From Candidatus Multivorans sp. (GTDB taxonomy: Bacteria; Acidobacteriota; Thermoanaerobaculia; Multivoradales; Multivoraceae), in contig OZ251997.1 in the NCBI GenBank assembly GCA_965247095.1, forward strand, positions 864,001-928,000: 64,000 bases of DNA, given 5' to 3'. Each line of letters opens with the position of its first letter. The stretch's first letter is position 1. Under the pieces are notes generated by a model, which made no database searches, was not told the DNA's origin, and worked only from the letters and a program-made list of their open reading frames with translations. Shown one piece after another: positions 19,275 through 60,467 of the stretch. A program made the position numbers and the translations under genes.

Positions 19275-19700
19275 TTGTATCTCCTCGACACGAACGTCGT
19301 TTCCGAGTTGCGCCGCCCGCGACCGCACCAGTCGGTTCTGCGCTGGTTTCGGGGCGTACCGGCTGAACGGCTCCACGTGTCCGCCGTCACGATCGGCGAG
19401 ATTCAGGCAGGCATCGAGATCACCAGGGAGCAGGATCCGGTCAAGGCGACCGAACTTGAGAGGTGGCTCGACAGTGTGCTCGGCGCGTACAGCGTCCTGC
19501 CGGTGGACGCCGACGTGTTCCGCGAGTGGGCCAAGCTGATGCACAAGCGATCGGACACGCTGATGCAGGACGGCATGATCGCGGCCGTCGCCGTTGTCCA
19601 CCGGTTGACGGTAGCGACCCGCAACGTCCGCGACTTCGAGGTGTTCGGCGTGGACACGGTCGATCCGTTCGCCAAGTCGGTTGGGGACGGTTTGCGCTGA
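19275..19700 (+). CDS. vapC: VapC PIN-domain toxin
   Basis: MYLLDTNVVSELRRP, SAVTIGEIQAG, DGMIAAVA, VATRNVRDF. Confidence 0.93.
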   Translation: MYLLDTNVVSELRRPRPHQSVLRWFRGVPAERLHVSAVTIGEIQAGIEITREQDPVKATELERWLDSVLGAYSVLPVDADVFREWAKLMHKRSDTLMQDGMIAAVAVVHRLTVATRNVRDFEVFGVDTVDPFAKSVGDGLR

Positions 19701-25988: not shown

Positions 25989-26627
25989 GACCGCTTCCCC
26001 GACCTCTACGTTTCGGTGCTGGGCGGGGCGAACCGTCTCTACCGGAACCGCGGGGACGGCAGCTTCGAGGACGTGGCGGCGGAACTCGACGTCACGGGGC
26101 CTAGCCAGAGCTTCGCGGCGTGGTTCTGGGACTTCGACAACGACGGCAACCTGGACCTGTTCGTGTCCAGCTATACCGGTGACCGGGGAGGCCTGGGCTT
26201 CGTGGCCGCGAGCTACCAGGGCTTCCCGGGTCCCTGGGAGTTGGCGCGGCTCTACCGGGGCACGGGCGGCGGGCGGTTCGAGGATGTCGCGGCCCGCGCC
26301 GGCCTGACCCGGCTCCATCTGCCGATGGGATCGAACTTCGGCGACCTGGACGCGGACGGTTTCCTCGACTTCTACCTCGGCACCGGCTACCCGGACTACG
26401 AGGCGGTGATGCCCAACGTCCTCTACCGCAGCCTGGGCGGCGAGCGGTTCGTCGACGTGAGCCTCGCCGCCGGCTTCGGCCACCTGCAGAAGGGACACGC
26501 GGTGGTGTTCGCCGAGGTCGAGGTCTACTGGCCGACCACGGACAGCACCCAGACGTTCACGGACGTCGGGATGGACCGGTTGTACCGGGTCGTCGAGGGT
26601 GTGGAGGCTTTGGAGGTGGTCGACTAG
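25989..26627 (+). pseudogene. Truncated and internally deleted CRTAC1/FG-GAP gene
   Basis: FPDLYVS...WDFDNDGNLDLFV...GDLDADGFLDFY...GHLQKGHAVVFA jumps straight to EVEVYWP (ASPIC tail) at ~26513; no N-terminus. Confidence 0.8.
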
Positions 26628-29077: not shown

Positions 29078-29117
29078 TGGACTGAGGTGGACGCGGGATT
29101 GTAGATCGTTCCAGGTT

Positions 29118-29158
29118 CCGCCTGCGGCGGATGCGGGCGAGACGCCCGGTGTGCCAGG
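29118..29158 (+). repeat. REP-like palindrome between divergent genes
   Basis: CCGCCTGCGGCGG-ATGCGGGCGAGACGCCCG..CCAGG. Confidence 0.75.
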
Positions 29159-29178
29159 CGTCGGCGTAGGATTCCCGC

Positions 29179-40202: not shown

Positions 40203-41478
40203 CAGTGCTGTCCCACAAACGGGGAGGAAGGATGGGTCTGAACCGTGCCTTGTCGTATGATTGGTGTTCAAGCAAAGCCAATGACGGCAAGGAGATCCAG
40301 ACCCATGGCGCACAATAGTACCGTACTTGGCCAGTTCCTCAAGCTGGTGTCGAGACATGAGTTCGAGCGGGAGGCCCGGCGGCATCACAGGGGACGCAAG
40401 CTGCGCTCGATGAGCCGCTGGGGCCAGTTCGTAGCGATGGCGATGGCGCAGCTTTCCGGGCGGCGCAGTCTGCGAGACATCGTGTCGAACCTGGATGCGC
40501 AGGCTCACAAGCTGTACCATCTCGGCGTTGGCCGGGTAGCCCGATCTTCGCTGGCGCGGGTGAACAGAGAGCAGCCTCACGAACTGTACGAGGCGCTGTT
40601 CGGTCGCCTTCTGAGCCGTTGTCAGGCGGCGTCGCCGGGGCATGGGTTCCGTTTCCGGAACAAGCTGTTGTCGCTCGACGCCACATACGTGGACCTGTGC
40701 CTGAAGGTGTTTCCCTGGGCGCGGTACCGCAAGACCAAGGGGGCGTTGAAGCTGCACGTGGGTCTCGACCACGAGGGCTGTCTGCCGTCGTTCCTGCACG
40801 TCACCGACGGCAAGGGCTCGGACCTCGAGGTGGCCCGGTCGCTTCGTCTTCCGAAGGGGAGCATCGTGGCGGCGGACCGTCTGTACCTCGACTTCGGATG
40901 GCTAAAGGACCTTGATGCACAAGGGGTTTTCCTGGTCACCCGCCTGAAGCGCAAGGTCAAGTACGCGGTTCGGGAGCGGCGCTCGTTCGCTCGCGGCCGG
41001 GGCGTGACGTCGGACCAGACCATCGAGCTGACCAGCGTCAAGGGGCGCAAGCGGTGCCCGATTCCGTTGCGTCGGGTCGGCTATCGCGACCCGGAGACGG
41101 GCCGGCACTACAAGTTCCTGACCAACAACTTCAGCCTCGCCCCGAAGACCATCGCGGACATCTACAAGGCGCGCTGGCAGGTCGAGCTCTTCTTCAAGTG
41201 GATCAAACAGAACCTGCGCATCAAGAGTTTCGTCGGCGCCTCGCCCAACGCGGTCATGACGCAGATCTGGATCGCCGTGTGCGTCCATCTCCTGCTCGCC
41301 TACCTGAAGTTCGTCAACAAGATGTCCTGGAGCATGAGCCGGATCCTGCGCCTTCTGCAACTCAACCTGTTCGACCGAAGATCGCTGCTGGACCTCTTCG
41401 AACCTCCGAGCGGACCACCCGACCCGAACAACACGCGAACTCAACTCGCTCTACTCTGAAGTTTGTGGGACAGCAATG
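40203..41478 (+). mobile_element. IS4 family insertion sequence (1276 bp)
   Basis: 18-bp terminal inverted repeats CAGTGCTGTCCCACAAAC / GTTTGTGGGACAGCAATG (1 mismatch); no target-site duplication. Confidence 0.92.
40305..41459 (+). CDS. IS4 family transposase (DUF4372 plus DDE)
   Basis: SLRDI, LDAT, KLHVGLD, ADRLYLDF, YKARWQVELFFKWIKQNL (YREK motif). Confidence 0.95.
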   Translation: MAHNSTVLGQFLKLVSRHEFEREARRHHRGRKLRSMSRWGQFVAMAMAQLSGRRSLRDIVSNLDAQAHKLYHLGVGRVARSSLARVNREQPHELYEALFGRLLSRCQAASPGHGFRFRNKLLSLDATYVDLCLKVFPWARYRKTKGALKLHVGLDHEGCLPSFLHVTDGKGSDLEVARSLRLPKGSIVAADRLYLDFGWLKDLDAQGVFLVTRLKRKVKYAVRERRSFARGRGVTSDQTIELTSVKGRKRCPIPLRRVGYRDPETGRHYKFLTNNFSLAPKTIADIYKARWQVELFFKWIKQNLRIKSFVGASPNAVMTQIWIAVCVHLLLAYLKFVNKMSWSMSRILRLLQLNLFDRRSLLDLFEPPSGPPDPNNTRTQLALL

Positions 41479-46301: not shown

Positions 46302-49300
46302 GTGAGGCTCTTCCGGCGGATTGGTACGGCTGTGGCGGCCGATTGGATCGATCGGCGCCAGCGCGGACGGCTGCGTCTCGTGCCCTCGTGCAACGTCTTC
46401 CGGTTGGGGCGTCTGGCGCGCTCCGGGGTTCTGGCTGCGTTGGGAGGGCTGTTCCTGAGTGCTGCCGCGCCGGGCCAGGAAAAGTCCACGGTGACGGTCA
46501 GTGCGGACGCGGAGTCCATCGAAGAAGGCGAGACCGCCTCGTTCACCCTGACCCGCACAGCGCCGCACGAGGCCGCACTGACCGTGATGATCGGGGTGGA
46601 TGCGTCGGACAGAACGGTCTCGCCGAGTCGGATCGGACGCGCGACTGTGGACTTCGCGGTCGGAGACGAGACCGCTTCGTACTCGGTGTCGACCATTGAG
46701 AACAATGCGTTCCAGGAGGAGCCCGGTTCGACCGAGGTTTCCCAGTCCGTCAGCCTGGAGGTCTTGGCGGAGTCGCTTGTCGACCCGACCTACATGGTTG
46801 GCGATCTTCGCAGAGCGACCGTCATGGTGACCGACAACGACGAGCGCGTCGAGTTTTCCCTGGTCGTCCCGGAGGGAGGGTTCAGGATCGCGGAAAACGC
46901 CGGGACCGTGGAGCTATCGGTACGCGCCACCACCGTGACGGCCGGATCTCCGACGGACAACGTCTACGGCGTGATCTTGACAACTGAAACAACCGCATCG
47001 GCGGCGTCGGGCGTGGACTATGACCTGCTGAGTGAGAACTTCTCCCTTGGAAGCCTACAGGCATGGAGCTCCATCACGGTCGAAGGCGAACCCCGCTACA
47101 CGACGACGGTGACCTACAGCTTGGACGTCTATGACGACGCGGTCGACGAAGGCGACGAGACATTCGAGCTTCAACTGCAGCACCCTCCGGGGCGTGAGCG
47201 GACGCCGTTCGGCGTCGGATCGGCGATCGTCACGATTCTCGACGACGATACGGCCGGTGTGACCGTTGAGCCCACCGAGTTGACGGTCACCTAGGGAGAC
47301 TCGACCGGCGCGTCCTACACGGTCGTGCTGGAGAGCTGGCCAACAGCCAACGTGACAATGAGTGTGACGGTGCCGCCGGGTGCGGGCGTGTCGGTGGACG
47401 AGACGTCGCTGACCTTTACGGACGCTGATTGGGACGAGCCTCAGACGGTGACCGTGACGGCCGTGCAGGACGCGGATCGGGTGGGTGGAACGGTGACCCT
47501 CGCCCACTCGGCCGCGGGCGGCGGCTACCACGCGGTGTCGGTCGCCGGTGTCGAGGTGACCGTAGTCGACGACGACCTCACCGCCTCGTTGACCGGCGCC
47601 TCGACGGTGGCGGAAGGTTCGACGGCGAGCTTCACCGTGACGCTCGCGGGCGGCACGAGCACGGCGGATGTCGTGGTGACGTACACGGTGGAGGGTACTG
47701 CGACCTCGGGAGACGACTACACGGCGCCGGCGGGGAGCCTGACGGTCACCTCGGCCGGGACCTCGGGCACGATCACGATCGAGACCCTGTCGGACGACGT
47801 GCTGGAGCCTGACGAAACGCTGATCGTGACCCTGACGGATGTGACCACGGCGAAGGGGTCGGCCGAAGTCAGCGAGACGTCCAATTCGGCAACGACGACG
47901 ATCACGGATTCGGGGACGGTCACGGTGTCGGTCGGCGCGGCTTCGGCCTCGGAGGGCGCCACGGTGTCGTTCCCGGTGACGCTGACGGGCGCGGTGGCAT
48001 CAAACGTCGTGCTGGGCTGGAGCACGACGGCGGGGACGGCTGTCTCGGGCACGGACTACACGGCGGTGACGTCCGGGAGCCTCACGATCAAGGCCGGCGA
48101 CACATCGGGGGTGTTGTCGGTATCGACGAAGGAGGACTCGCTGACCGAGGCGGACGAGACGTTCACGGTGACCATGACGGGCACGACCCTGCCCACCGGT
48201 ACAGTCTTGGGCGTTGCGACGGCGGCGGGAACGATCGAGGACGACGACACGCTGGGCGCCGTGGTGACGGGCGCCGCGTCGGCGCCGGAGGGTTCCATGG
48301 TGACCTTCACGGTGTCATTGACCGGCGGGGCGAGCACGGCGGCGGTGGTCGTGACATACGTAGTCGAAGGCACCGCGACCCCGGGCGAGGACTACACGGC
48401 ACCGTCCGGGATCCTGACGATCGCCCCGGGGGACAACGAGGGCGCGATCGCGATCGCGACGAAGTCGGACGACGTGCTGGAGGGCGACGAGACCCTGATC
48501 TTGACGCTGACGAGCATCAGGACGGTTATGGGGAAGGCGTCGGCGAGCGTGCCGACGGCGACGACGACGTTGGTCGAAGGCACCTCGCCCAGCGGCCCGG
48601 TCGCCACCGGCAGTGTCCGCGCCGTCGGAACGCCGGTCGTGGGCGCCACCTTGACCGCCGTGCTCTCGAACGTGACCGATCCGGACGGTGTAGGTGAGTT
48701 TCGCTTTCGGTGGATCGCGGGGGACGCGGAGGTGCCGGATGAGACCGACGAGACCTGCCTGCTGAGGGAAGAGGAACTTGGCAACGTGATGCGAGTCGAG
48801 GTGGCCTACACCGATGACCTGGGTAAGGTGAAGACGCTGGTGTCCGACCCGGTCGGACCGGTACGCGCGGCGCCCACGCCTCCACCGGAAACCCCGCCGA
48901 CATTGACCATCTCGCCGGGTCCGAGTCCGGTGGTGGAGGGTTCGGCCGTGGAGTTCACCGTGAGGCGGTCCCATGCGAAGATGGACTTGGGAGCGCTCGA
49001 GGTCACCATCTCCGAAACGGGTTCCATGCTCACCGGCGTGCCGCCAAGGGCATTCCGCTTTGCCGTTGGTGAGACGACCGCTCGCCTTCGGCTGGACACG
49101 GACAACGACGAAGTGAACGAGGCGGGCAGCGAGGTGCGGGCGACTCTCGCTGCCGGAGCCGACTAGAGCTTGGGACACCGCGAGCTGCAACCGTGCTGGT
49201 GCTGGACGATGATGCTTCGCCAGGGCTGATCGTCGAACCAGGGGCGGCCTCGGAAGATGCGGGAATGGTGGAGCTGGTGGCGCGACTGACGGCCCCGACC

Positions 49301-51511
49301 GGAGAGTCGCTTTAGGTCGCCTGGTCGACATCGGATGCTACGGCCATGGCCGGAGTGGACTACGTGGAATCGTCCGGAATGCTGACCTTCCCTGTCGGCG
49401 CCACCGAAGAGCGTTTCTCTGTGGGACTGATCGACGACCGGATCGCCGAGGGGAACGAGTACCTCCTGATCATGCTGCGAGATGCCTGGACTGAGGTCGA
49501 CGAGTCTCCGATTGCCGCGACGATTCTCGACGACGACCCGGCGTCCGCGAATGTCGAGCTCACCTTGGATCGGGAGCGGGTCTCCGAGGGCGAGGGACCG
49601 GTTGCGTTGACGGTCACAGCCGCACTCGATAGGAGCGCACGCGGTGTGGACACTGCGGTGGAGGTCGCCTTGTCGAGTAGCGGCGCCTCGGGCACAGTGG
49701 GTTACACCGCCGCGGAGGATTTCGTGCTGACGATCCCCGAAGGGGCGCTTAGCGGCTCCGCGTCGTTCACGCTGAGACCCGAAAACGACCGGGTGGATGA
49801 GTTGGACGAAACGATCGAGGTTTCGGGGACTTCGGTTCTGCCGGTGATTCCGACTTCGCTGCTTCTCGAGGACGACGACGAGCCGTCCAAGTCGATCGTC
49901 CTGGCGGCGTCCCCCGAAGTCATTGCGGAGGACGCGGGGGTACCCCATCCTCGGCGGGCGCGGTCCGGGGAGGCAGGCCGGCGCCGGCCCTGGAACGCCG
50001 ATGCTTCAGGGAGGCGGCTGGTTCGGCGCCTCGGCGCCTGGTGCCCCAATGCCGGCCGGCGTCAGCTCGATGCGCGGAAACGAGCTGGGGGGCATGGCTC
50101 CTTCGGCTTGTCGGGCTACGGTGGCGGACCGTCACCGATGAGCCGGATGTTCGGCGGTAGCGCCCTGAGCAGTTTGGCGAGCCCCAGCCGGCTTCCGGGC
50201 TGGGGCGGCCCGGGGCGGAGTTCCTCGCTCAGCCGCTACCAGGGGGACCAGAGATGGGATCTGTTGGCGCGGAGTTCCTTCAGCCTGTCTTCGTCGGCCG
50301 GCCCGAGGGAGGGCGGCGATGGTGTTGCCGCCGGCAACTTGACCGCCTGGGGCCGGGGTGCGGTGACGGACTTCCGGGGCGACGAAAACGACCTGTCGGT
50401 AAGGGGCGAGGTCGTGACGGGCACGGTCGGTGTCGACTACGAACGCGGAAGGTGGCTGACCGGGCTCGCGATGGGTCTCAGCCGCGGCCGGGGCGGTGTC
50501 GGCGGCAACAGCGACTCCGGGCTCGAGGCTTCCCTGACGACTGCCAATCCTTACGCGAGAATCCGGATCGGAGAGAACCTGATGCTGTGGGGCGTCCTGG
50601 GCTATGGCCGCGGCGAGTTCTCGATGACCGAGGACGGTACGACCACCCGGACGGACCTTTCGCTGACCATGGGCGCCCTTGGATTCCGCCGTGACCTGGT
50701 GTCGTCGGCTCGCGGCTTCGGTCTGGGCCTCAAATCCGACGTGTTCCTGGCCCAGATCGATGCGGACGCGGCGCCGGGCTTGGCGGCTGTAAGCCAGGAC
50801 GTGAACCGCGTGCGTCTGGCCCTGGAGACCTCGTACAGCCGGTCGTTCGGCGGTGGCGGGGTGCTGACGCCGTCGTTCGAGATTGGGGTTCGCCATGACG
50901 GCGGTGACGCGGACCAGGGGCGTGGGGTCGAGATGGGCGTCGGCCTTCGCTACACGGACTCCGATCGGGGCCTCAGGATCGAGTTCGCCGGTCGATCCCT
51001 GCTGACCCACCAGGCGAGCGGTTTCGAGGAATGGGGCGGATCAGGTGCCGTGACTCTCGATCCGGGCAAGTCGGGTCGCGGGTTCGCGCTTGGTCTTCGT
51101 TCCTCGTGGGGCGCGTTCCACGGCGGGGTCCAGCAGCTCTTGTCGCAGGGGCGGATGGTCGACCCTGGCGGGCGCTTCGGGCTGCACCAGGGTGGCCGGG
51201 TGGAAGCCGAGGCGGGCTACGGCTTGGGCCGGGCGGCTGGGCGCGTTCTCGTGAGCCCGTTCGGGGTTGTGATGCTGGCCGAAGAAGGTGAACGCGGGTT
51301 CGGCGCCGGCGCGAGCCTCGACTTCGCCCGGATGCTCAGCCTGAGCGTGGAGGTTTCCCGCCGCCGTTCGGTCCGCGAAGAGCCGGAGGACGCGGTGCTG
51401 CTGCTGGGCACGCTGCGGCTTGGGCCCAGGTCGGAGCCAGTGAAACCGGTCCGGGCCAATGCGGCCGAGGCTAGCTCTGCCTCGTTGCCGGCTACGCCAT
51501 CGCGGCGATGA
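46302..51511 (+). pseudogene. Calx-beta repeat autotransporter/adhesin, multiply disrupted
   Basis: Calx-beta repeats (A..G.DY, DD.V.E.DET) and a C-terminal autotransporter barrel (AWGRGA, GVDYERG, LTPSFEIGVRHDGGDA); in-frame TAG at 47292 and 49313, 1-bp deletion at ~49165, rearranged junction at ~49940. Confidence 0.85.
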
Positions 51512-52538
51512 TGCTGCGCGCCATCTGCCAGGTCGAGGATCGGCCTCCCAGATCGGGGGTCAGACTACTGCGCGCCTCGAGGACGGTGGTCACCGCCTGG
51601 TCGATCCGGTCGGCCTCGTCGTCGAGGTCGAAGTGCCTGAGCAGCGCGGTGGCCGGCGTCAGGAGCGGCAGGAGGTTCGCCTGACCGGTGCCGATCAGGT
51701 GCGGTGCGTCGCCGTGAACGGCCTCGAAGACGTGGCAGTCGTCGCCGACGTTGATCGCGTGGCCGGCTGAGATGCCGCCCGCCAGTCCGGTGCCGAGGTT
51801 GCTGATGATGTCGCCGTAGAGATTGTCGGTCAGCAGCACGTCGAACGCGTACGGGTCGAGCACCAGGCGCATGCACGCCGCGTCGACGATGCAGTCGTCG
51901 ATTTCGATGTCGGAGTAGCCGGCGGCGACGGAGCGTACGGTGTCCAGGAAGAGACCGTCGCTCTGTTTCATGATGTTCGCCTTGTGGATGGCCGTGATCC
52001 TCTTGCGGCTGTGGCGCCGGGCGATGCGGAAGGCGTAGTCGGCGATCCGCTGGCAGGCGGCGCGGCTCACGACCTTTATGCTCTCGACCACGCCGTCGAC
52101 GATCTCGTGCTCGATGCCGCGATAGACGCCCTCGGTGATCTCGCGGATCAGCAGTACGTCGAGGTCCGGGTAGCGCGTCGGCAATCCCGGGATCGAGCGG
52201 ATCGGCCTTACGCTCGCCCACAGTCCCAGCATCTGTCTGAGCGCGACGTTCGGGTTTTGGGGCCCTGGTCCGACGCGCACCGCGTCCGGACCGGGGCCGA
52301 TGAGGCGGGTCTTGAGCGCCACCCGGCAGTCGCGGATCATGTCGGCTGCCTCGCGGAGCACCGTTTCCGTGTTCCGGCGCACCGCGGTGGGAACGTCCAC
52401 CCGAACGAAGTCGAAGTCGGTTCCCGCCGCCTCCAGGATCGCGAGCACCGGCGGCGCGGTTTCAGCGCCGATGCCGCTGGCGCCGACGATCAGCGCGACG
52501 CGCGGCGGACCGCCGTTCCGTTCGTCCTTGCCGCTCAT
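51492..52538 (-). CDS. Isocitrate dehydrogenase (NAD-IDH3-like) divergent subunit B
   Basis: NVALRQ, VRPI, REITEGVY, HKANIMK, IVDA, NLYGDIISNL, FEAVHGDAP. Confidence 0.88.
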   Translation of the reverse strand: MSGKDERNGGPPRVALIVGASGIGAETAPPVLAILEAAGTDFDFVRVDVPTAVRRNTETVLREAADMIRDCRVALKTRLIGPGPDAVRVGPGPQNPNVALRQMLGLWASVRPIRSIPGLPTRYPDLDVLLIREITEGVYRGIEHEIVDGVVESIKVVSRAACQRIADYAFRIARRHSRKRITAIHKANIMKQSDGLFLDTVRSVAAGYSDIEIDDCIVDAACMRLVLDPYAFDVLLTDNLYGDIISNLGTGLAGGISAGHAINVGDDCHVFEAVHGDAPHLIGTGQANLLPLLTPATALLRHFDLDDEADRIDQAVTTVLEARSSLTPDLGGRSSTWQMARSIIAAMA

Positions 52539-53572
52539 GGCGTGGCCTCACGCTCCATGGCCACGGCCTCGAGTTCGGCCAGCAGGGCGTCGGTCAGCTC
52601 CGACGTGCTAGCGGTGCCGCCCAAGTCACGGGTGAGCGCCTTGCCCGCGATCAGGAGCCGTTCGACGCCGGCGCGCAGGTGGGCCGCCGCCTCCGCCTCA
52701 CCGACGTAGCGGAGCAGCAGTTCGGCGGAGAGGATCAGGGCGATCGGATTCGCCAGGTCGCGGCCGGCGATGTCGGGCGCCGTTCCGTGGACCGCCTCGA
52801 ACACCCCGCAGCCGTTGCCGTAGTTCGCGCCGGGCACGACGCCCAGGCCGCCGACCAATCCGGCGCAGAGGTCGCTCATCAGGTCGCCGTCCAGGTTGCC
52901 CATGACCAGCACGTCGAAACGGGTCGGGTCTATGGCCAGCTCGAGCGCGAGGTTGTCGAGAGGCAGATAGTCGACCTGGAGGAAGGGGTAGTTCTGCTCG
53001 CACTCCCGGGCGCAGTCCAGGAAGAGGTTGTCCGAGAGCGGGGTGATCGATGCCTTGTGCACGATCGTCAGCTTCTTGCGGCCGTGACTGCGCGCATACT
53101 CGAAGGCGAACTGCATGATCCGCCGGGAGGCGTCCCGGGTGACGATCTTGAGAGCCTCGACCACGCCGTCGACGACCTCGTGTTCGCGGCCGCTGTAGAG
53201 GCCCTCGGTGTTCTCGCGGACGATGATCAGGTCGACGCCTTCGTAGCGGGCGCGGTTGTTGCCGGGCATCGAACGCACCGGCCGCACGCAGGCGAACAGC
53301 TCCAGTGACTGCCGCAACAGGACATTCACGCTGCGCCAGCCGCCGGCCACCGGCGTCTGAAGAGGGCCCTTGATGGCGATCCGGTTGCGCCGGATCGACT
53401 CGATCGCCTCGTCCGGAAGCGGCGAAAGACCCTGGTCGACCGCCGTGCTGCCGGCGATGACCGGTTCCCATTCGATCCGGCCGCCGGTGACGAAGTCGAC
53501 CGCGCGCACCATCGCCTTGCTGACCTCGGGACCGATGCCGTCCCCGGGCAGGAGTGTGACCGAGTACTTCAA
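52535..53572 (-). CDS. Isocitrate dehydrogenase (NAD-IDH3-like) subunit A
   Basis: PGDGIGPEV, KGPLQTP, RSVNVLLRQ (isocitrate-type SxN), RENTEGLY, GDLMSDL, FEAVHGTAPDIAG. Confidence 0.9.
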   Translation of the reverse strand: MKYSVTLLPGDGIGPEVSKAMVRAVDFVTGGRIEWEPVIAGSTAVDQGLSPLPDEAIESIRRNRIAIKGPLQTPVAGGWRSVNVLLRQSLELFACVRPVRSMPGNNRARYEGVDLIIVRENTEGLYSGREHEVVDGVVEALKIVTRDASRRIMQFAFEYARSHGRKKLTIVHKASITPLSDNLFLDCARECEQNYPFLQVDYLPLDNLALELAIDPTRFDVLVMGNLDGDLMSDLCAGLVGGLGVVPGANYGNGCGVFEAVHGTAPDIAGRDLANPIALILSAELLLRYVGEAEAAAHLRAGVERLLIAGKALTRDLGGTASTSELTDALLAELEAVAMEREATP

Positions 53573-53579
53573 CGGGCTG

Positions 53580-55136
53580 CTAGAAGCTCGAGTCGCTCAC
53601 CAGCGCCTCGATCAGGCAGGGTCCCGGCTCGGCGAAACCCCGCTCAAGGGCAGCCGTCAGCTCTTCGCCGGTGCGCACCTGCACGGCGGGCATGCCGAAG
53701 CCTCGTGCCAGATCGAGCCACTCGACCCGCGGCGTGCCGAACTCCGTCAGGTTCAGGCTCTGCGGGCCGAACTCCTCGACCCCGGCCCGTTGCAGCTCAA
53801 CCTGAAGGATGCGGTAGGCGTCGTTGGCGAACACCAGGTTGACGACATCGACTCCTTCCCGGACCTGGCTCCAGAGCGCCTGGATCGTGTACAGGCCGCT
53901 GCCGTCGCCCTCGAGCGTCAGCACCTTGCGGTCCGGGCACGCGATGGCGGCGCCGAGCGACGCTGGCAGGCCGAGGCCGATGGCGCCGCCGTTCTCCTGC
54001 AGGTAGGTGTGGGCGGGGCCGTTCATCGTGGCCGGGTAGAAGGCGGCGCCGGCGGTGATTCCCTCGTCCATCACGATCGCGTTCTCGGGCAGGGTGGCCG
54101 CGACCGCCTGGGCCGCGACCCGGGCGCCGATCGGACCGGTTGGCGTCGGTGGCCGCTCGACCGCGCGGGCCGGCGGCTCTTCCTTGGCGTCGAGCGCGGC
54201 GGCCAGTTCGCAGAGCGCGTGGCCGCTGTCCTCGGTCGGATGGCTCAGGATGACGACTTCCACCGACTCCGGAGTCAAGCGGCTCACTCCGCCCTCGTAG
54301 CCGAAGAAGGCGACGGGATCGAGTGCACCGGCCAGGACCACCGTGTCGATTCCGCCCATGAACTCGACTGCCTGCTCGGGAAAGTAGGGCACCCGCGGGA
54401 GCGCCGGAAGCTGGGGACCACGCTCCATGCGCCCCGAGAACGTCTCGGCGACGAGCCGGCAGCCGGTCGCTTGCTGTACCTTGGCGGCTTCGCGCTGCGC
54501 TCTATCCGTATGGCCGGAACTGCCCAGCATCAGCATCGTGCGCGCCCCCCGGGCGACGGCGGTCCGGGCGCGCTCGACCGCGTCAGCACCGACGCGCGCG
54601 CCGGGTGCGGGGTCGGGTTCGACGATCGGACCATAGGCCTCGTTCCACTGGCAGTCGGTCGGCACGATCAGGGTGGCGATCTGCCCCGGATGGTGCAGGG
54701 AAGCCGAGATGGCGGCGGCCATGTCGCGAGAGATGTGATCGGCCGAGGCGACGGTACGCTGCCAGTCGGAAACTCCCTCGACCAGGCTCTCGACCTTGGT
54801 GTTGAGCGGCGGGTCGTAGTTGCGGTGCCAGGTGGGATGGTGGCCGATCACGTTGACGACCGGCGTGCGGCCGCGCCGCGCGTTGTGCAGGTTGGCGATG
54901 CCGTTCGCGAATCCGGGTCCTAGATGGACCAGGGTCAACGCCGGTTTGCGGGCCATGCGGCCGTAGCCGTCGGCGGCGCCGGTGGCGACACCCTCGAACT
55001 GCGCCAGCACGCCGCGAACGCCCGGAATCTCGTCGAGAGCCGCGACGATGTGGATCTCCGACGTGCCGGGATTGGCGAAGCAGACCTCGACGCCCGCGTT
55101 GGCGGCGGTCCGGATCATGGCCTGGGCGCCGTTCAT
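53580..55136 (-). CDS. ThDP-dependent enzyme (acetolactate synthase large subunit-like / 2-oxoacid decarboxylase)
   Basis: CFANPGTSE, FEGVATGAADGYGRM, HLGPG, GDGSGLYTIQALWS, N..Y.IL. Confidence 0.9.
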   Translation of the reverse strand: MNGAQAMIRTAANAGVEVCFANPGTSEIHIVAALDEIPGVRGVLAQFEGVATGAADGYGRMARKPALTLVHLGPGFANGIANLHNARRGRTPVVNVIGHHPTWHRNYDPPLNTKVESLVEGVSDWQRTVASADHISRDMAAAISASLHHPGQIATLIVPTDCQWNEAYGPIVEPDPAPGARVGADAVERARTAVARGARTMLMLGSSGHTDRAQREAAKVQQATGCRLVAETFSGRMERGPQLPALPRVPYFPEQAVEFMGGIDTVVLAGALDPVAFFGYEGGVSRLTPESVEVVILSHPTEDSGHALCELAAALDAKEEPPARAVERPPTPTGPIGARVAAQAVAATLPENAIVMDEGITAGAAFYPATMNGPAHTYLQENGGAIGLGLPASLGAAIACPDRKVLTLEGDGSGLYTIQALWSQVREGVDVVNLVFANDAYRILQVELQRAGVEEFGPQSLNLTEFGTPRVEWLDLARGFGMPAVQVRTGEELTAALERGFAEPGPCLIEALVSDSSF

Positions 55137-55217
55137 CGAAGCGGCAGGCTAGCAAGCCTTGCGAAAGATCGTGCCGCCAGGGCCTCGGACGCGGGACCGA
55201 GGGGGGCTTCGCGACTC

Positions 55218-55760
55218 TCAGGAGACGCTTGCCTGGGCCGCCTGCGGACGTTCGAGCGGCAGGGCCGTCGTGTGCTTGATCTCGTTCAGCACGATGCTGG
55301 TCAGCAACCGGTCGACGCCGGGTATGCTGGCAAGCTGGTCCGCGAGGATGTGTTCGAGGTGGCGATAGTCCCGGGCCACGATCTTCAGCATGTAGTCGTG
55401 TTCGCCGGTGAGGAAGTGGCACTCGAGCACCTCCGGCAGTCTCAGGACCTTGTTGCTGAACTGCTGTCTGGCGTCCGCCTGGTGGTGGGTCAAGTAGACC
55501 TGCACGAAGCACAGCAGACCCAGGTCCACAGCGTTGCGGTCGAGCAGGGTGACTCGCTGCTGGATCACGCCGCGCCGTTCCAGCTTGCGCAGGCGCTTCT
55601 TCAGGCCCGAGGCGGACAGGCTCACCTCGCGCGCGAGGTCCACGTCGGTTCGATTCGAATCCTCTTGCAGGAGCGCCAGGATGGCGTAGTCGGTGGCGTC
55701 AAGGGGCCGGGTCGGGAAGCGGCTTGACTCCGCTGCCCGCCGAGGGTCGGTCTTGTCCAT
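55218..55760 (-). CDS. Lrp/AsnC family regulator (divergent from the Phe/Tyr catabolic genes)
   Basis: LDATDYAILALLQED, ECHFLTGEHDYMLK, TSIVLNEIK. Confidence 0.93.
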   Translation of the reverse strand: MDKTDPRRAAESSRFPTRPLDATDYAILALLQEDSNRTDVDLAREVSLSASGLKKRLRKLERRGVIQQRVTLLDRNAVDLGLLCFVQVYLTHHQADARQQFSNKVLRLPEVLECHFLTGEHDYMLKIVARDYRHLEHILADQLASIPGVDRLLTSIVLNEIKHTTALPLERPQAAQASVS

Positions 55761-55843
55761 GGGGGCGGAGTCTACACGGACGGGGTTGGGGAGTGCGGAA
55801 TCGACGCTTGTTCGGTCGCGTTGGCTCTGTTAGCGTTCCACTG

Positions 55844-57097
55844 ATGGCGATAGAAGCTCATTCCACTACCGCAACCCCAGAAACGGTACGCGTCTCGGTA
55901 TCCCAAAGAGGGGGGCAGCCGCGGTCGAGAACGCTGCCCATCGCGCCGTGGCTGCAGGGTCGCGAGCGTTCGCTGCTGCGTCGGCTGGTCAATCAGGTCG
56001 CGCGGCCCGGCGTGGTTTCGCTCGCCGGTGGGCTGCCTGCCGTGGAGTTGTTTCCGTCGCAAGCCTACGGCGAAGTGGTGCGCCGGCTGCTGGCCGATCC
56101 GCAGTCCATGCAGTACGTCCCGTCATGCGGGGAACTGAAGGAACGGGTGGTGGAGGTCATGCGACGCCGTGGCGTCGATTGCAGATCGGAGGAGATCCTG
56201 ATCACGACGGGCGCGCAGCAGGCGCTCGATGTCGCCGTTCGTGCGTTCGTGAGTGTGGGTGAGAGTGTCGCCGTCGAGCGCTATGCGTACGCGGGCTTCA
56301 GGGAGGTTCTGGCGCCGCTCCGGCCGCGACTCGTCACTCTGCCGAGCAGCCTGGACGACGGGCTCGATGTCGAGGCGCTCCAGCGCTGCCTGCTCGCCGG
56401 CGTCCGGCCGCGACTGGTGTACGTGATCCCGGATGCGCACAACCCGCTCGGCGTCAGCCTGGCCCGTGAGGCCCGGGAGCGGTTGGTGGTCCTGGCTCAC
56501 GACTATGACTTCGTGATCCTGGAGGACGATCCCTACGGTCTGCTGTGCTGCGACGGCGAGTTCGAGCCCCCGCTCGCGGCCCTCGACTCGGAGCGGGTGA
56601 TCTACGCGGGCACCTTCTCCAAGATCCTGGCGCCGGCGCTGCGCCTCGGCTGGCTGCGACTGCCGGCGTCGCTGGTCGAGACCTTCGCGGCGGTCAAGGA
56701 GATCGGGGACCTCGAGTGCTCCAGGCTGACCGTGCTCGCCGTGGCCCGTCTGCTGGGAGACCTTGACTTCGACCGCCACCTCGAACTGCTGCGATCGACC
56801 TACCGGGGCCGTCGGAACGCGATGATCGAGGCACTTGCCGATCATCTCCCGGCGGGCTGCGCCTTCAGTGAGCCCGGCGGCGGCATGTTCGTGTGGGTAG
56901 AACTGCCCGAGGGGACGGACGGGGAGCAACTGCTCCAGCGGACCCTGGCCGAGCGGAAGATCGCCTTCGTTCCCGCGGCGGCGTTCGCGGACGGTGCAGA
57001 CCGCGCCGCGCCCGGGAACGCGGCCCGCTTGAGCTTCTCGCGCCTGGAGCCGGAGGCTCTGCGCGAGGCGGTGGCGAACTTCGCCGCCTGCATTTGA
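55844..57097 (+). CDS. PLP-dependent class I/II aminotransferase (LysN/ARO8-like)
   Basis: SLAGGLPAVELFP, ITTGAQQALD, HNPLG, EDDPY, GTFSKILAPALRLGW, GGMFVW; start uncertain. Confidence 0.9.
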   Translation: MAIEAHSTTATPETVRVSVSQRGGQPRSRTLPIAPWLQGRERSLLRRLVNQVARPGVVSLAGGLPAVELFPSQAYGEVVRRLLADPQSMQYVPSCGELKERVVEVMRRRGVDCRSEEILITTGAQQALDVAVRAFVSVGESVAVERYAYAGFREVLAPLRPRLVTLPSSLDDGLDVEALQRCLLAGVRPRLVYVIPDAHNPLGVSLAREARERLVVLAHDYDFVILEDDPYGLLCCDGEFEPPLAALDSERVIYAGTFSKILAPALRLGWLRLPASLVETFAAVKEIGDLECSRLTVLAVARLLGDLDFDRHLELLRSTYRGRRNAMIEALADHLPAGCAFSEPGGGMFVWVELPEGTDGEQLLQRTLAERKIAFVPAAAFADGADRAAPGNAARLSFSRLEPEALREAVANFAACI

Positions 57098-57140
57098 GAT
57101 CCTGCCCGGGCCGGACAACGACAAGAAAAGGAGAGAAGGA

Positions 57141-58403
57141 ATGAGACCAGGAGATTGCGCCGCAGAACGCAGCGAAGCGAGTTCAGGGACGCAAGGTCAT
57201 GGTGAGGACGGGATGGGCCGAAACACCGAGCCTGCGAGGCGTTTCGGAGCGGGGGTTACCGAACAGACACAGACCGGGTTTCTTGGTCGAAGCACCGCAA
57301 CCGACGACGACTTCTGTCCGATTCTCGGCTTCGATCATCTGGAACTGTACGTCGGCAACGCGAAGCAGTCGGCTGCCTACTACTGCCATGCGTTCGGTTT
57401 CGAGTGCACAGCGGTGCGGGGACTCGAGACCGGCGAGCGGGCGCGCGCGTCGTACCTGGTGGAGCAGGGCGGTATCCGGTTCCTGTTGACCAGTGCGCTG
57501 CACTCCTCGCACGATGCGGCGCGGTCGGTTCGGCGGCACGGCGATTCGGTAGCGGTGATCGCGCTCTCGGTGCCGAGCGCGGACGAGGCGTTCACCGCCG
57601 CGGTATCGCGGGGCGCGGAGGCCGCGGCGCCACCGGCAACGGCCCGGGATCAGCACGGCGAAGTTCGCCACGCCTCGATCCACCTCTACGGCGACTGCTT
57701 GTTGCAGTTCATGGAGCGCCGGGACTACGGCGGGGCCTTCGGTCCCGGTTTCGAACCGGCGCCGGAAGTCCCCGGCGTCGCGGGCCTCAGGGGCTGCGGC
57801 CTGCTCGCGGTCGACCACGTCGTGGCCAACGTCGAGTTGGGGCGGATGAACGAGTGGGCCCGGTTCTTCTCGCGCGTCCTGGGCTTCAACCAGCTCGTCC
57901 ACTTCGATGACGCGGCGATCTCGACCGAGTACTCGGCGCTCATGTCCAAGGTGATGCAGGACGGTTCGGGGGTCATCAAGTTCCCGATCAACGAGCCCGC
58001 CGAGGGCCGCAGGAAGTCGCAGATCGAGGAGTTCCTCGACTTCCACGAAGGACCGGGCGTGCAGCACATTGCCTGCTGCACGGACGACATCCTGGGCACC
58101 GTGTCTCGGCTGCGCGAGAACGGGGTCGAGTTCCTCAACGTGCCGGGGGCCTACTACGACGACCTCGAGCTGCGGGTAGGGAAGATCGACGAGCCGATCG
58201 ATCGCCTGGCCGAACTCGGCATCCTTGCCGACCGCGACGAGGATGGCTACCTGCTTCAGATCTTCACCAAGCCGGTGGAGGACCGACCGACTCTGTTCTA
58301 CGAAATCATCGAGCGCCACGGGGCGCGGGGCTTCGGCGAGGGCAACTTCAAGAGCCTGTTCGTGGCGCTCGAACGGGAGCAGGCGGCGAGGGGCAACCTG
58401 TGA
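57141..58403 (+). CDS. hppD: 4-hydroxyphenylpyruvate dioxygenase
   Basis: DHVVANVELG, EYSALMSKV, KFPINEP, GVQHIA, LLQIFTKP..DRPTLFYEIIER, GFGEGNFKSLF. Confidence 0.97.
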   Translation: MRPGDCAAERSEASSGTQGHGEDGMGRNTEPARRFGAGVTEQTQTGFLGRSTATDDDFCPILGFDHLELYVGNAKQSAAYYCHAFGFECTAVRGLETGERARASYLVEQGGIRFLLTSALHSSHDAARSVRRHGDSVAVIALSVPSADEAFTAAVSRGAEAAAPPATARDQHGEVRHASIHLYGDCLLQFMERRDYGGAFGPGFEPAPEVPGVAGLRGCGLLAVDHVVANVELGRMNEWARFFSRVLGFNQLVHFDDAAISTEYSALMSKVMQDGSGVIKFPINEPAEGRRKSQIEEFLDFHEGPGVQHIACCTDDILGTVSRLRENGVEFLNVPGAYYDDLELRVGKIDEPIDRLAELGILADRDEDGYLLQIFTKPVEDRPTLFYEIIERHGARGFGEGNFKSLFVALEREQAARGNL

Positions 58404-59557
58404 GCCACTACCTGCGCGCGGGCGAGATCCCGCACAAGCGCCACACCCAGTTCCGCAAGCCCGACGGATCGCTTCACCACGAGGAGGTGATGGGGATCCA
58501 CGGCTTCTCGGGCGTCCAGTCGATCCTCTACCATCTGCATCCGCCGACCGCGATCGAGCGGATCGAGGACCGGATCGGGAACGGTCTCAAGCTGGAGTAC
58601 GCGGGGCCCCTGCGGCATCGCCTGATCCGGGCCGCCGAGACGCCTGAGCAGGGAAACGCGGTGAGCGGTCGGGTGGCGCTGCTCACCAACCGCGACCTGG
58701 TGCTGTCCGTGGTCCGGTTTCGCGAAGCGATGGACTACTGGTACCGCTACGCGCACGGTGACGAGCTGCTGTTCGTGCACGAGGGGCACGGCGTGCTCGA
58801 GACCCAGTTCGGCCGGCTGGAATACCGCCCTGGGGACTATCTCGTGCTGCCCACCGGAGTCATCTGGCGACTCCTGCCGCGGGCGGACGAGCCGCAGCGG
58901 ATGCTCTGTGTCGAAGCCGCCGGCCACATCGAGCCGCCACGGCGCTACGTGAACCGCTACGGCCAGTTCCTTGAGAACTCGCCGTACTGCGAGCGCGACA
59001 TCCGCCCGCCGGAGTGGGTCGAGCCGCAGGACGAGGAAGGCGAGTTCGAGGTGCGGGTCAAGGCCCGCGGCGGCACCACCCGTTACCTGTACCGGCGCCA
59101 CCCGATGGACGTGGCCGGTTGGGACGGCCACCTGTGGCCTTACGCCTTCAACATCGAGGACTTCGAGCCGATCACCGGCCGCGTCCACCAGCCGCCGCCG
59201 GTGCACCAGACCTTCGACGGGCCCGGGTTCGTCGTCTGCTCCTTCGTGCCGCGGCTGTTCGACTACCACCCGCAGGCGATTCCCGCTCCCTACAACCACT
59301 CCAACGTCGATTCGGACGAGGTCATCTACTACGTCGAGGGCGATTTCATGTCGAGGCGCGGAGTGGAACGGGGATCCCTGACCGTGCATCCGAACGGCAT
59401 TCCGCACGGGCCCCATCCGGGCGCCTACGAGGGATCGATCGGCAAGGAGCGCACCGACGAACTCGCGGTCATGGTGGACACCTTCCGGCCGCTGCAGATG
59501 ACGGCTGCCGCGGCCGACCTGGAGGACGAGAGCTATGCCTATAGCTGGCGCGGTTGA
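58400..59557 (+). CDS. hmgA: Homogentisate 1,2-dioxygenase
   Basis: G.IPHKRH, HPMDVAGWDG, HQPPPVHQTF, CSFVPR, PYNHSNVDSDEV, HPNGIPHGPHP, ELAVMVDTF. Confidence 0.95.
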   Translation: MSHYLRAGEIPHKRHTQFRKPDGSLHHEEVMGIHGFSGVQSILYHLHPPTAIERIEDRIGNGLKLEYAGPLRHRLIRAAETPEQGNAVSGRVALLTNRDLVLSVVRFREAMDYWYRYAHGDELLFVHEGHGVLETQFGRLEYRPGDYLVLPTGVIWRLLPRADEPQRMLCVEAAGHIEPPRRYVNRYGQFLENSPYCERDIRPPEWVEPQDEEGEFEVRVKARGGTTRYLYRRHPMDVAGWDGHLWPYAFNIEDFEPITGRVHQPPPVHQTFDGPGFVVCSFVPRLFDYHPQAIPAPYNHSNVDSDEVIYYVEGDFMSRRGVERGSLTVHPNGIPHGPHPGAYEGSIGKERTDELAVMVDTFRPLQMTAAAADLEDESYAYSWRG

Positions 59558-60467
59558 ACCGGCGGTTCGCGAAGGGACCGCCGGCCGGGATCTGACTACC
59601 GGCCGGGCCGACTTCATCGAGCGGGCGCAGACGGAGGGCGAGTTGTTCATCGAGCAGCCGTACGAGCTCTACAGCGAGTCGAACCAGCGGACCTGGAGGC
59701 GCCTCTACCGGGCGCTCGCCGGACGCTGGGAGAAGCACGCCCACCCGCGTTTCCTCAATGGCGTGACGCGCCTGGCGCTCGACCCGGACCGCATCCCACG
59801 CCTCGCCGACATCAACGGGTTCCTGGAGCCCCTGAGCGGCTTCAAGGCGCGGGCGGTGAGCGGCTACGTGCCGGCGTACCTGTTCTTCGATTGTCTGAGG
59901 CGGAGGGAGTTTCCGACCACGATCACCGTCCGCGACGGCGAGCGGCTCGGCTATCTTCCCGAGCCGGACATCTTCCACGACCTGGCCGGGCACGTGCCGA
60001 TGCACACGGATCCGGCGTTCGCGGATGTGCTGGCGCGCTTCGGCGAGGCTGCCCGCACGGCCGCACTGCGGGCCCGGGAGGGTAGCTGCCGGCGCGTCGA
60101 GAGCGCGCTCCGGGCGCTGGCCCGGTTCTTCTGGTTCACGATCGAGTTCGGCCTCATGCGACGGCCGGACGGGAGCGGACTGTGCGCATACGGCAGCGGT
60201 CTTCTGAGTTCGGCCGGCGAGATCGAGCACGCGCTGGAATCCCCCGACGTGCAGCGGATCCCGTTCCAGCTCGACTGGGTCGTGAACCAGAGCTTCGAGA
60301 TCGATTCGCTGCAGCCTCTGCTCTTCGTGGTCGACGGTTTCGACCACCTGGAGCGCGAGGTCCGTCGACTGGAGGGTTGGCTCGGCGCTGGGCGCCTGGA
60401 CAACGTGGCCCCGGGCGAGCCGGCGGTCAGCCGCGAGGACCTGCGCTCGTTTCTGGAAGCGGGCTAG
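59535..60467 (+). CDS. phhA: Phenylalanine 4-monooxygenase
   Basis: YLPEPDIFHDLAGHVPM, LARFFWFTIEFGL, AYGSGLLSSAGE, IDSLQPLLFVV. Confidence 0.95.
   Translation: MPIAGAVEPAVREGTAGRDLTTGRADFIERAQTEGELFIEQPYELYSESNQRTWRRLYRALAGRWEKHAHPRFLNGVTRLALDPDRIPRLADINGFLEPLSGFKARAVSGYVPAYLFFDCLRRREFPTTITVRDGERLGYLPEPDIFHDLAGHVPMHTDPAFADVLARFGEAARTAALRAREGSCRRVESALRALARFFWFTIEFGLMRRPDGSGLCAYGSGLLSSAGEIEHALESPDVQRIPFQLDWVVNQSFEIDSLQPLLFVVDGFDHLEREVRRLEGWLGAGRLDNVAPGEPAVSREDLRSFLEAG

Follow-up and report, generated by a model that had tools for sequence, protein, structure and literature searches.

Overlapping genes for a catalytic-type and a degenerate isocitrate dehydrogenase chain: a candidate heteromeric NAD-isocitrate dehydrogenase in bacteria

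Two overlapping genes, A and B, in a 64,000-nt stretch of DNA from Candidatus Multivorans sp. (the window) are likely to encode the two chains of a heteromeric isocitrate dehydrogenase that depends on NAD+ (NAD-IDH) and has one working active site; we put the probability of this reading at about 0.75. Binding between the chains, their activity, substrate and stoichiometry are what we infer; residue states, conservation, co-inheritance and purifying selection were observed directly. The genes concerned are as follows.

51492-52538, minus strand: gene B, the degenerate partner chain (348 aa, ATG start; open reading frame, Iso_dh family)
52535-53572, minus strand: gene A, NAD-isocitrate dehydrogenase subunit of the catalytic type (345 aa, TTG start; open reading frame, Iso_dh family, IDH3 alpha match)
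52535..52538, minus strand: start/stop overlap of A and B, 4 nt (ATGA), junction ccATGAgc
53580..55136, minus strand: gene for a thiamine-diphosphate (TPP) enzyme of 518 aa (NF005760/PRK07586, 677.8 bits, cut-off 363)

The ATG of B shares 4 nt with the TGA of A, implying translational coupling of the two genes, which would favour a 1:1 output of the chains. The 4-nt overlap is conserved in 5/5 genomes, those of the window and of four close relatives (L001-L004), as ATGA in L001-L003 and TTGA in L004; A starts with TTG in L001-L003 and with GTG in L004. Both products matched PF00180 (Pfam), the isocitrate/isopropylmalate dehydrogenase superfamily, over nearly the full profile (A 311.5 bits, B 230.4 bits; gathering cut-off 27). 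TIGR00175 (A 361.8, B 311.6; equivalog cut-off 432.4) and NF006529 (A 375, B 291.9; equivalog cut-off 510) were the top-scoring NCBIfam families for both, though neither protein qualified as an equivalog. Human IDH3 alpha was the top solved-structure match of both (A 331.6 bits, B 239.2 bits), and A and B are 42% identical across 298 aa. The sequence-only reading had described two ATGA-coupled IDH3-like genes; the open reading frames, the junction and the structure matches bear this out, and all motifs that it quoted for A and B were found in the translations.

Active sites in this family are two-chained: substrate, metal and cofactor residues are contributed in cis, and one residue each of Lys, Asn and Asp is donated in trans by the partner. 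We numbered residues as in IDH3 alpha, transferring the positions via HMMER alignments of A and B to that protein, and counted residue states in the A-type (106 proteins) and B-type (105 proteins) clades of a FastTree phylogeny of 254 rows (4 of 240 proteins, shorter than 300 aa, were left out). A retains the cis residues T74, S82, N84, R88, R98, R119, Y126, D230 and D234, and each of the nine is conserved in 106/106 A-type proteins, in agreement with the claim that the cis motifs of A are kept. Its NAD determinant is Asp, the equivalent of Asp268 of IDH3 alpha (PMC6827300); of the 106 proteins, 96 have D here and 9 have E. Among the donated residues, Lys173 and Asp206 are retained in A (each in 105/106 of the clade), and N175 is changed to S. 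At position 175, 99 A-type proteins have S and 3 have A, while T and N occur in 2 each. A further substitution, Y228 to D, recurs in 104 of the 106. Four fixed changes (F79W, S140A, N175S and Y228D) separate A from 20 canonical rows. The proposed loss in the donated segments of A thus applies to Asn175 and flanking residues, but not to the catalytic Lys173 or the metal ligand Asp206.

B retains N84, R88, R98, R119, Y126, K173, N175, D206 and D230, whereas S82 is replaced with N, D234 with N and the NAD determinant Asp268 with His, position 74 has no Thr, and the motifs GDG and HGT read GAS and HGD. In the B-type clade, K173, N175, D206, N84, R88, R119, Y126, Y228 and D230 are conserved in 105/105 and R98 in 86/105. 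Position 82 is N in 99 proteins, with Ser retained in 6/105; position 234 holds S (54 proteins), N (50) or E (1), with Asp in 0/105; the GDG Asp is present in 2/105. The beta3-alpha3 loop has exactly 14 residues in all A-type rows (106/106) and in all rows of neither type (43/43), but ranges from 13 to 40 residues in B-type proteins, with little sequence conservation. B-type proteins have two conserved motifs of their own: the loop opens with K-T-[RK], and in HGDAPHL, D occurs in 84, H in 67 and L in 94 of the 105 proteins. The mirror pattern read from the single sequence of B, in which HKANIMK and IVDAACM are intact but Ser, the NAD motifs and the second metal Asp are gone, is therefore near-invariant family-wide. 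Recurrence in 106 A-type and 105 B-type proteins argues that the A/B pattern is not due to chance. The active-site loss is lopsided rather than complementary as first described: both chains are altered, but the Lys and Asp donated by A are intact.

Based on the window and L001-L004 (10 pairwise comparisons per gene), dN/dS spanned 0.10-0.16 in gene B, 0.06-0.105 in gene A and 0.13-0.17 in the TPP gene. Purifying selection acts on B, which shows no signs of decay; decay of B in relatives had been named as an outcome that would speak against the heteromer. The evolutionary rate of B is 1.76 times that of A.

In the proposed enzyme, the minimal unit would be an AB dimer, and an A2B2 tetramer is possible. 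Site 1 would combine the cis residues of A with Lys186, Asn188 and Asp219 of B (numbered as in B itself). As a fully canonical site, it would be expected to oxidatively decarboxylate isocitrate using NAD+. For the human enzyme, the structural account describes an alpha site to which gamma contributes Lys182 and Asp215, and alpha itself T74, S82, R88, R98, R119, Y126 and D230 (PMC5241874); the residue set of NAD-IDH as listed there and in PMC6827300 is found across the two chains here, with the cis residues and Asp268 in A and the trans Lys and Asp in B. Site 2 would combine the cis residues of B with Lys173, Ser175 and Asp206 of A. It has no gamma-carboxylate Ser, second metal Asp or NAD motifs, and is probably non-catalytic. 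The placeable changes of both chains, which do not include Y228D of A, all fall in this site: N175S of A, and S82N, D234N/S, the loss of GDG, HGT to HGD and Asp268 to His of B. Invariance of the trans residues of B, though its own site is degenerate, is sensible only as a service to the site of another chain; the main role of B would be that of a trans-residue donor and dimer partner, and what remains of its pocket might or might not hold a regulator. Because A retains Lys173 and Asp206, an A2 homodimer is compatible with the sequence and, missing only Asn175, might be active. Hence, of the obligate A/B heteromer with one working site that had been put forward, the heteromer with one canonical and one degenerate site is backed by the comparisons, but the obligate state is not.

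Complex prediction gave A-B a score of 0.92, against 0.00 for the best of 3 controls, a pass that may reflect memory of solved IDH3-like dimers. This mark was reached by 116/157 solved complexes and 2/215 mismatched pairs, which is a rough calibration only, as our own alignments were supplied. The runs agreed in at least 89% of contacts, with partner pLDDT of at least 88. Since like complexes have been solved (human IDH3 alpha-beta and alpha-gamma, yeast IDH1/IDH2), the score indicates likeness, not binding. Type-specific fixed changes were not enriched at the predicted interface (A 2/4, Fisher p = 0.23; B 2/8, p = 0.62), and by this comparison there was no sign in the sequences of an interface favouring A-B over A-A.

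The pairing of A and B extends well beyond the close relatives. At least 31 A/B pairs, with one member among the 120 A matches listed and one among the 120 B matches listed, have identically sized longest contigs; adjacency in these distant pairs is deduced from equal contig sizes, not from DNA read. The contigs include ones of 2578, 3060 and 3276 bp, with room for little beyond two such genes. Among the loci listed in a genome scan, at least four close relatives (L001-L004) carry the pair and there is at least one other tandem pair, whereas in 75 of the 80 loci the stretch examined contained one close relative of the query and no other. The more distant tandem pair L006 is less degenerate. 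P0241, with 4 member sequences, is a natural A-like/B-like fusion of 712 aa with the domains in gene order and a linker of about 50 aa; its A-like domain (59.6% identity to A) carries HKAS, and its B-like domain carries HKAN and altered GDG and HGT motifs. In an IQ-TREE phylogeny of 97 rows, the A-type (32) and B-type (32) proteins are each monophyletic (support 99) with matching subclades. Patristic distances of A and B were correlated (r = 0.749; reached by 0/2000 permutations); since any two genes that share their genomes would show such a correlation, it is evidence of co-inheritance, not of contact. Source names of the matches listed include Acidobacteriota (Thermoanaerobaculia, Holophagales), Acidimicrobiia and Gemmatimonadales. 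The pair had been called unusual for bacteria. Our literature searches found no bacterial precedent for a two-subunit NAD-IDH, but the pair itself is not rare and occurs in several phyla.

A and B might instead be two separate homo-oligomeric enzymes sharing an operon, A2 being an NAD-IDH and B2 acting on another substrate or in another function. A has the full cis set together with Lys173 and Asp206, B retains the Tyr/Lys pair, three Arg and Asp230, and according to PMC4360740 bacterial relatives form homodimers or homotetramers. However, in a B2 enzyme both sites would be without the second metal Asp (0/105), their substrate loop would be hypervariable and their NAD loop changed (GDG Asp in 2/105), and yet the trans residues of B are invariant. 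Strict pairing, the overlap in 5/5 genomes and the P0241 fusion also better suit one complex, and we regard separate enzymes as improbable. A bifunctional heteromer, in which site 2 is also catalytic with altered chemistry (a substrate without the gamma-carboxylate, or another cofactor), is very improbable. Such a site would retain Tyr139 and Asp243 of B, Lys173 and Asp206 of A and three Arg, and would miss one of three metal Asp residues, no more; but the NAD-binding motifs (GDG, HGT, Asp268) are altered in nearly all B-type proteins, the substrate loop of B is hypervariable and B evolves faster than A.

An extension of the heteromer reading, rather than an opponent of it, holds that the pocket of B is a true allosteric site at which a carboxylate or nucleotide ligand tunes the site of A, as in human gamma (citrate, ADP) and yeast IDH1 (isocitrate, AMP). 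The B-type pocket keeps N84, R88, R119, Y126 and D230 in every protein and R98 in most, and the conserved K-T-[RK] and HGDAPHL motifs are unlike random decay. The two loops remodelled in B correspond to beta3-alpha3 and beta12-alpha8, given as the allosteric-site loops of gamma in PMC6827300. According to PMC5241874, citrate bound to gamma touches Lys173 and Asn175 of alpha, and the equivalent of Asn175 is fixed as Ser in the A-type. On the other side, a loop of 13 to 40 residues in place of the fixed 14 fits a defined ligand site poorly, and human beta, as described in PMC6827300, retains the equivalent Tyr and Lys but binds no activator; conserved pocket residues are therefore no proof of binding. 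With its hypervariable loop, the pocket rather resembles a site that is relaxed or pseudo-allosteric, and we hold the allosteric version only tentatively. Equally doubtful is the broader proposal that bacteria of several phyla evolved a regulated heteromeric NAD-IDH independently of mitochondria, with B as an effector-binding metabolite sensor that switches the site of A; the effector pocket would then consist of Arg, Tyr and Asp residues of B plus Lys173 and Ser175 of A. If true, pseudo-enzyme allosteric control of TCA-cycle entry would be a repeated evolutionary solution and not a eukaryotic invention.

The TPP gene ends 7 nt before the start of A and is probably co-transcribed with A and B; any part of its product in the enzyme would be conjectural. 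Its top solved relative is benzoylformate decarboxylase (109 bits). It lies upstream of A in L001-L004 (4/4), with a TTGA overlap with the start of A in L003, and is not present upstream of the tandem pair in L006. An Lrp-type regulator gene lies upstream on the same strand as the TPP gene, A and B, and genes for an aminotransferase, HPPD, a homogentisate-dioxygenase-like protein and an aromatic hydroxylase adjoin the locus. This setting would suit a substrate other than isocitrate, with A and B in one pathway with the TPP enzyme and the aromatic amino-acid catabolic neighbours, and both proteins score under the IDH equivalog cut-offs. The linkage says little, because the entire region is syntenic in the close relatives L001-L004, and L006, the one more distant tandem pair read, does not share it. 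Furthermore, the isocitrate-specific Thr74, Ser82 and Asn84 are conserved in 106/106 A-type proteins, and the top family and structure matches are all isocitrate dehydrogenases. Another substrate is thus quite improbable.

B-type proteins carry the source name 'NAD-dependent isocitrate dehydrogenase', yet a B-type chain is unlikely to be active alone, so that reconstructed metabolisms of Acidobacteriota and Acidimicrobiia may list two isocitrate dehydrogenases in place of one. A catalytic chain and a degenerate partner that arose independently in bacteria would offer a natural replicate of the passage from a homomer to a heteromer with a pseudo-enzyme subunit, with intermediate stages extant in the less degenerate L006 pair and the fused P0241.

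Hetero-oligomeric NAD-IDH is presented as mitochondrial, and bacterial relatives as homo-oligomers, in the accounts of PMC8333347 and PMC4360740. The bacterial homo-oligomeric NAD-IDHs ('subfamily III' / type I) share with A the family, a length of about 335-345 aa and the NAD motif, and A-type proteins are nested among them in the 97-row tree and in a 59-row tree. Those enzymes are described as single-gene homodimers or homotetramers (PMC4360740), whereas in the present case a degenerate paralog invariably accompanies the first.

The eukaryotic mitochondrial enzyme (human IDH3 alpha/beta/gamma; yeast IDH2/IDH1) likewise consists of two paralogous chains of the same fold. According to PMC5241874, its catalytic chain has all cis residues, its partner, without the metal Asp, gives the trans Lys and Asp, there is one functional composite site per heterodimer, and D230/D234 are substituted in the regulatory subunits. 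Similarly, B-type proteins have no Asp at 234 (0/105) and the donated K173 and D206 in 105/105. The details of the loss differ. Eukaryotic regulatory subunits lose D230, which the B-type retains; presumed eukaryotic regulatory rows have lost R98, D230 and D234 and kept T74 and S82, whereas B-type proteins have lost T74, S82 and D234 and kept D230 and mostly R98. Also unlike the eukaryotic enzyme, the Asn donated by the catalytic chain has become Ser here, and the genes are adjacent and overlapping.

In the 59-row tree, eukaryotic catalytic-type and regulatory-type rows, labelled by their residue states and N-terminal extensions and with reference to 3 named fungal proteins and two PDB look-ups, are sisters in one clade (support 98), and the B-type lies outside the 39-row clade (support 99) containing them. 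Common descent of the B-type with eukaryotic regulatory subunits was rejected: the forced clade, chosen after tree inspection, costs 76.4 lnL (p-AU 0.0009). Because tree and AU test separate the two splits, the resemblance is convergent and not inherited, and by these phylogenies the A/B split is of independent origin. A further parallel is human IDH3 alpha-beta, in which, as PMC6827300 describes it, the pocket of the non-catalytic partner keeps the Tyr/Lys pair and takes no activator as two loops differ; the hypervariable beta3-alpha3 loop suggests a similar, structural-only role for B. Human IDH3 beta, however, arose inside the eukaryotic clade, whereas the B-type has Asp230 and its own KT[RK] and HGDAPHL motifs.

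Two adjacent minus-strand ORFs resembling isocitrate dehydrogenase (IDH) genes, designated A (catalytic type) and B (its degenerate partner), lie downstream of a gene for a thiamine-diphosphate (TPP) enzyme:

53580-55136, minus strand: TPP gene, named 'acetolactate synthase large subunit'; PRK07586 family (NF005760), 677.8 bits
52535-53572, minus strand: gene A, ORF of 345 aa with a TTG start
51492-52538, minus strand: gene B, ORF of 348 aa

At the A/B junction (ccATGAgc), four bases are common to the start codon of B and the stop codon of A, which bears out the ATGA-coupled tandem arrangement noted in the sequence-only reading. Both products are full-length members of Pfam PF00180; their top NCBIfam matches are NAD-isocitrate dehydrogenase models, with scores below the equivalog cut-offs. 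A and B are 42% identical, and human IDH3 alpha was the best solved-structure match of each (331.6 bits for A and 239.2 bits for B). No further IDH was found within the 64-kb window. The closest relatives of the window, among the matches listed, belong to Candidatus Multivorans and Multivoraceae (Acidobacteriota, class Thermoanaerobaculia). G+C content in the window is 62-72%, and a scan of 51000-56200 for promoters and terminators, uninformative at 69% G+C, returned none of either.

Employing HMMER alignments to solved structures, we placed the residues of A and B in IDH3 alpha numbering, with the roles of active-site residues taken from excerpts of PMC5241874 and PMC6827300. In these enzymes, cis residues for substrate, metal and cofactor come from one chain, and a trans Lys, Asn and Asp are donated by the partner. 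A showed all cis residues intact (T74, S82, N84, R88, R98, R119, Y126, D230 and D234) as well as the NAD-determinant Asp268; it retained the trans residues Lys173 and Asp206, and its sole changes were Asn175 to Ser and Tyr228 to Asp. Tyr228 belongs to the NLYGD metal motif, and residue 228 of A is encoded at about 52889-52891. B retained the trans Lys, Asn and Asp together with N84, R88, R98, R119, Y126 and D230, and showed S82 replaced with Asn, D234 with Asn, Asp268 with His, GDG with GAS and HGT with HGD, and no Thr at T74. Every motif previously quoted for A and B was correct; of the 'complementary active-site loss' deduced from them, the loss in B stands, and that in A was overstated, since A keeps Lys173 and Asp206 and has Ser for Asn175.

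To the 120 relatives listed for each protein by homology searches we applied FastTree (254 rows; 4 of the 240 proteins were left out as shorter than 300 aa). Among these relatives, A-type proteins formed one clade (106 rows) and B-type proteins another (105 rows), the counts including the window's own proteins and P0001, a duplicate of B.

Active-site positions in the A-type (106 rows) and B-type (105 rows) clades
Nine cis residues: A-type, all intact, 106/106; B-type, N84, R88, R119, Y126 and D230 105/105, R98 86/105
S82: A-type, S 106; B-type, N 99, S 6
D234: A-type, D 106; B-type, S 54, N 50, E 1 (Asp 0/105)
K173 (trans): A-type 105/106; B-type 105/105
N175 (trans): A-type, S 99, A 3, T 2, N 2; B-type, N 105
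D206 (trans): A-type 105/106; B-type 105/105
Y228: A-type, D 104/106; B-type, Y 105/105

The residue pattern of A and B is a family trait. Only four differences from ordinary enzymes are fixed in the A-type, including Y228D, F79W and S140A. Two proteins, P0044 (288 aa) and P0190 (263 aa), both from small contigs, diverge abruptly in mid-alignment as if frameshifted and were excluded from the counts.

When assigned to composite sites, every placeable change in both chains, with Y228D of A set aside, falls in one, made of the cis residues of B and the trans residues of A; the other, made of the cis residues of A and the trans residues of B, remains canonical. Because the invariant trans residues of B would be pointless in a B2 dimer with dead sites, A and B probably form a heteromer with one working site, a reading well supported by comparative evidence and to which we give a probability of about three in four. 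Its strongest argument is this site-wise partition, together with the invariance of the B trans residues. The heteromer put forward in the sequence-only reading gains support from residue partition and co-inheritance; it may be obligate, as that reading held.

Complex prediction with the A-type and B-type alignments gave a score of 0.92 for A-B versus 0.00 for the best of three controls. Of 157 solved complexes, 116 reach this mark, as do 2 of 215 mismatched pairs; because we supplied our own alignments, these counts are approximate here. Contact agreement between runs was at least 89%, and partner pLDDT was at least 88. The predicted interface (residues 173-180 and 205-207 of chain A, 186-193 and 218-220 of chain B) corresponds to the canonical arrangement, and type-specific fixed changes showed no significant enrichment at it. 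Because human and yeast IDH3 heterodimers have already been solved, the model, which covers the AB pairing alone, shows likeness to solved dimers rather than proof of binding.

Among the matches listed for A and B, the longest contigs were identical in size in 31 A/B pairs, including contigs of 2578, 3060 and 3276 bp, with room for barely two such genes. Judged by the equal sizes, A and B are probably adjacent in these 31 distant pairs. In an IQ-TREE phylogeny of 97 rows, 32 A rows and 32 B rows each formed one clade (support 99 each) with matching subclades; patristic distances of A and B were correlated (r = 0.749; 0 of 2000 permutations as high), and B evolved at 1.76 times the rate of A. 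The TPP-A-B order was conserved in all four close relatives examined (L001-L004), with a 4-nt A/B overlap that reads ATGA in three of them and TTGA in the fourth. Decay of B, named beforehand as evidence against the heteromer, was not seen: dN/dS was 0.10-0.16 for B (0.06-0.105 for A), and B is therefore under purifying selection. We also scanned a genome collection with the B-type alignment and the patterns [IV]HK[AG]NIMK and Y[KR]G[IL]EH[EV][IV]V, which ordinary IDHs fit too. The 80 loci listed included the 4 close relatives and 1 other tandem pair; the remaining 75 each showed a single close relative of the query in the stretch examined. One locus, L043, carries an additional distant match.

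The other tandem pair (L006, positions 6799-9011, from an uncultured Acidobacteriota bacterium) is less degenerate. Its first gene encodes HKAS and all cis residues, Asn175 to Ser being its only change; in its second gene, which encodes HKAN, Ser82 and the two metal Asp residues are intact and the NAD motif is altered (HGNAPHLEG). Judged by these residues, the pair appears to represent an earlier step in the specialisation seen in A and B. A search of longer proteins yielded P0241 (712 aa, 4 member sequences, from outside the window), in which an A-like domain with HKAS and a B-like domain, in the order of the A and B genes, are connected by about 50 aa of low-complexity sequence. Such a fusion would support physical association of A-like and B-like chains in the wider family; alternatively, P0241 may be two neighbouring genes read through as one.

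The altered pocket of B may have become an allosteric site, an idea we regard as rather unlikely. Its residues are invariant in the B-type, which has conserved motifs of its own (KT[RK] and HGDAPHL). However, the beta3-alpha3 loop, which in catalytic chains holds T74 and S82 and in IDH3 gamma is described in an excerpt of PMC6827300 as part of the allosteric site, has anywhere between 13 and 40 residues in the B-type, versus exactly 14 in the 106 A-type and 43 other rows; according to the same excerpt, the pocket of human beta shows that such a site can be silent.

The TPP gene ends 7 nt from the start of A; in L003 the two genes overlap, the TPP stop and the A start sharing TTGA. This linkage is weak evidence, because the entire region is syntenic across the four close relatives and L006 is without the TPP gene. 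2-Oxoglutarate decarboxylase is part of cyanobacterial TCA variants; assignment of the TPP enzyme to this activity was unsupported, its nearest solved, and nearest characterised, relatives being benzoylformate decarboxylases at only 109 bits. The PRK07586 family is poorly characterised. Other features of the window are as follows:

Within 55218-60467, minus strand: Lrp/AsnC regulator, beyond the TPP gene
Within 55218-60467, plus strand: aromatic amino-acid catabolic cluster, divergent from the regulator
46302-51511, plus strand: large Calx-beta repeat protein gene, split into three ORFs
40245-41459, plus strand: DDE transposase (DUF4372 and DDE_Tnp_1)
26624-29194, minus strand: 856-aa protein in which two stretches match family III CoA-transferases
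19275-19700, plus strand: PIN-domain protein
9720-14487, minus strand: PSCyt/PSD1 and DUF1501 gene pair

The aromatic cluster encodes an aminotransferase, 4-hydroxyphenylpyruvate dioxygenase, a biopterin-dependent aromatic hydroxylase and a short cupin of 385 aa that resembles homogentisate dioxygenase but scores only 57.8 bits against TIGR01015. Distant from the cluster, at 2549-3451, is a gene of the fumarylacetoacetate-hydrolase family. An in-frame TAG (47292-47294) and a frameshift in the region of 49140-49180 interrupt the Calx-beta gene. Its homolog is a single 1795-aa ORF in L001 and is missing at the corresponding place in L002-L004; the breaks reflect either pseudogenisation or an error of assembly.

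Hetero-oligomeric NAD-IDHs are described as mitochondrial, and their bacterial relatives as homo-oligomers, in excerpts of PMC8333347 and PMC4360740. No description of a bacterial hetero-oligomeric IDH was found in the full-text literature searched, which excludes most subscription journals. Searches of longer and representative proteins added three named fungal IDH [NAD] subunits to the comparison, along with unnamed representatives with N-terminal extensions, in which R98, D230 and D234 are replaced and T74 and S82 kept, the residue pattern of regulatory subunits. P0271, with human beta as its best match and yeast IDH1 scoring above IDH2, fits the regulatory-type label, and P0252 (531 bits against human alpha) fits the catalytic-type label. 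Against solved structures, the B-type profile showed no special tie to regulatory subunits (alpha 351, yeast IDH1 320, beta 317, gamma 310, yeast IDH2 309).

In a 59-row tree, eukaryotic catalytic-type and regulatory-type rows were sisters (support 98), nested in a clade (support 99) that took in the A-type lineage as well as ordinary bacterial enzymes; the B-type fell outside that clade. For a simple recent tandem duplication, with the A and B lineages as one exclusive clade, the outcome was borderline (dlnL 30.8, p-AU 0.0355) and may be affected by long-branch attraction of the faster-evolving B lineage; A and B may be each other's closest paralogs. A common origin of B with the eukaryotic regulatory subunits was rejected: forcing B-type and regulatory-type rows together cost 76.4 lnL (p-AU 0.0009, in a test run with the tree already known). 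The residues lost also differ between the B-type lineage and the regulatory lineage of eukaryotic IDH3. The tree, the AU test and these differing losses argue that the bacterial A/B split arose independently of the eukaryotic one, and that its likeness to mitochondrial IDH3 is convergent.
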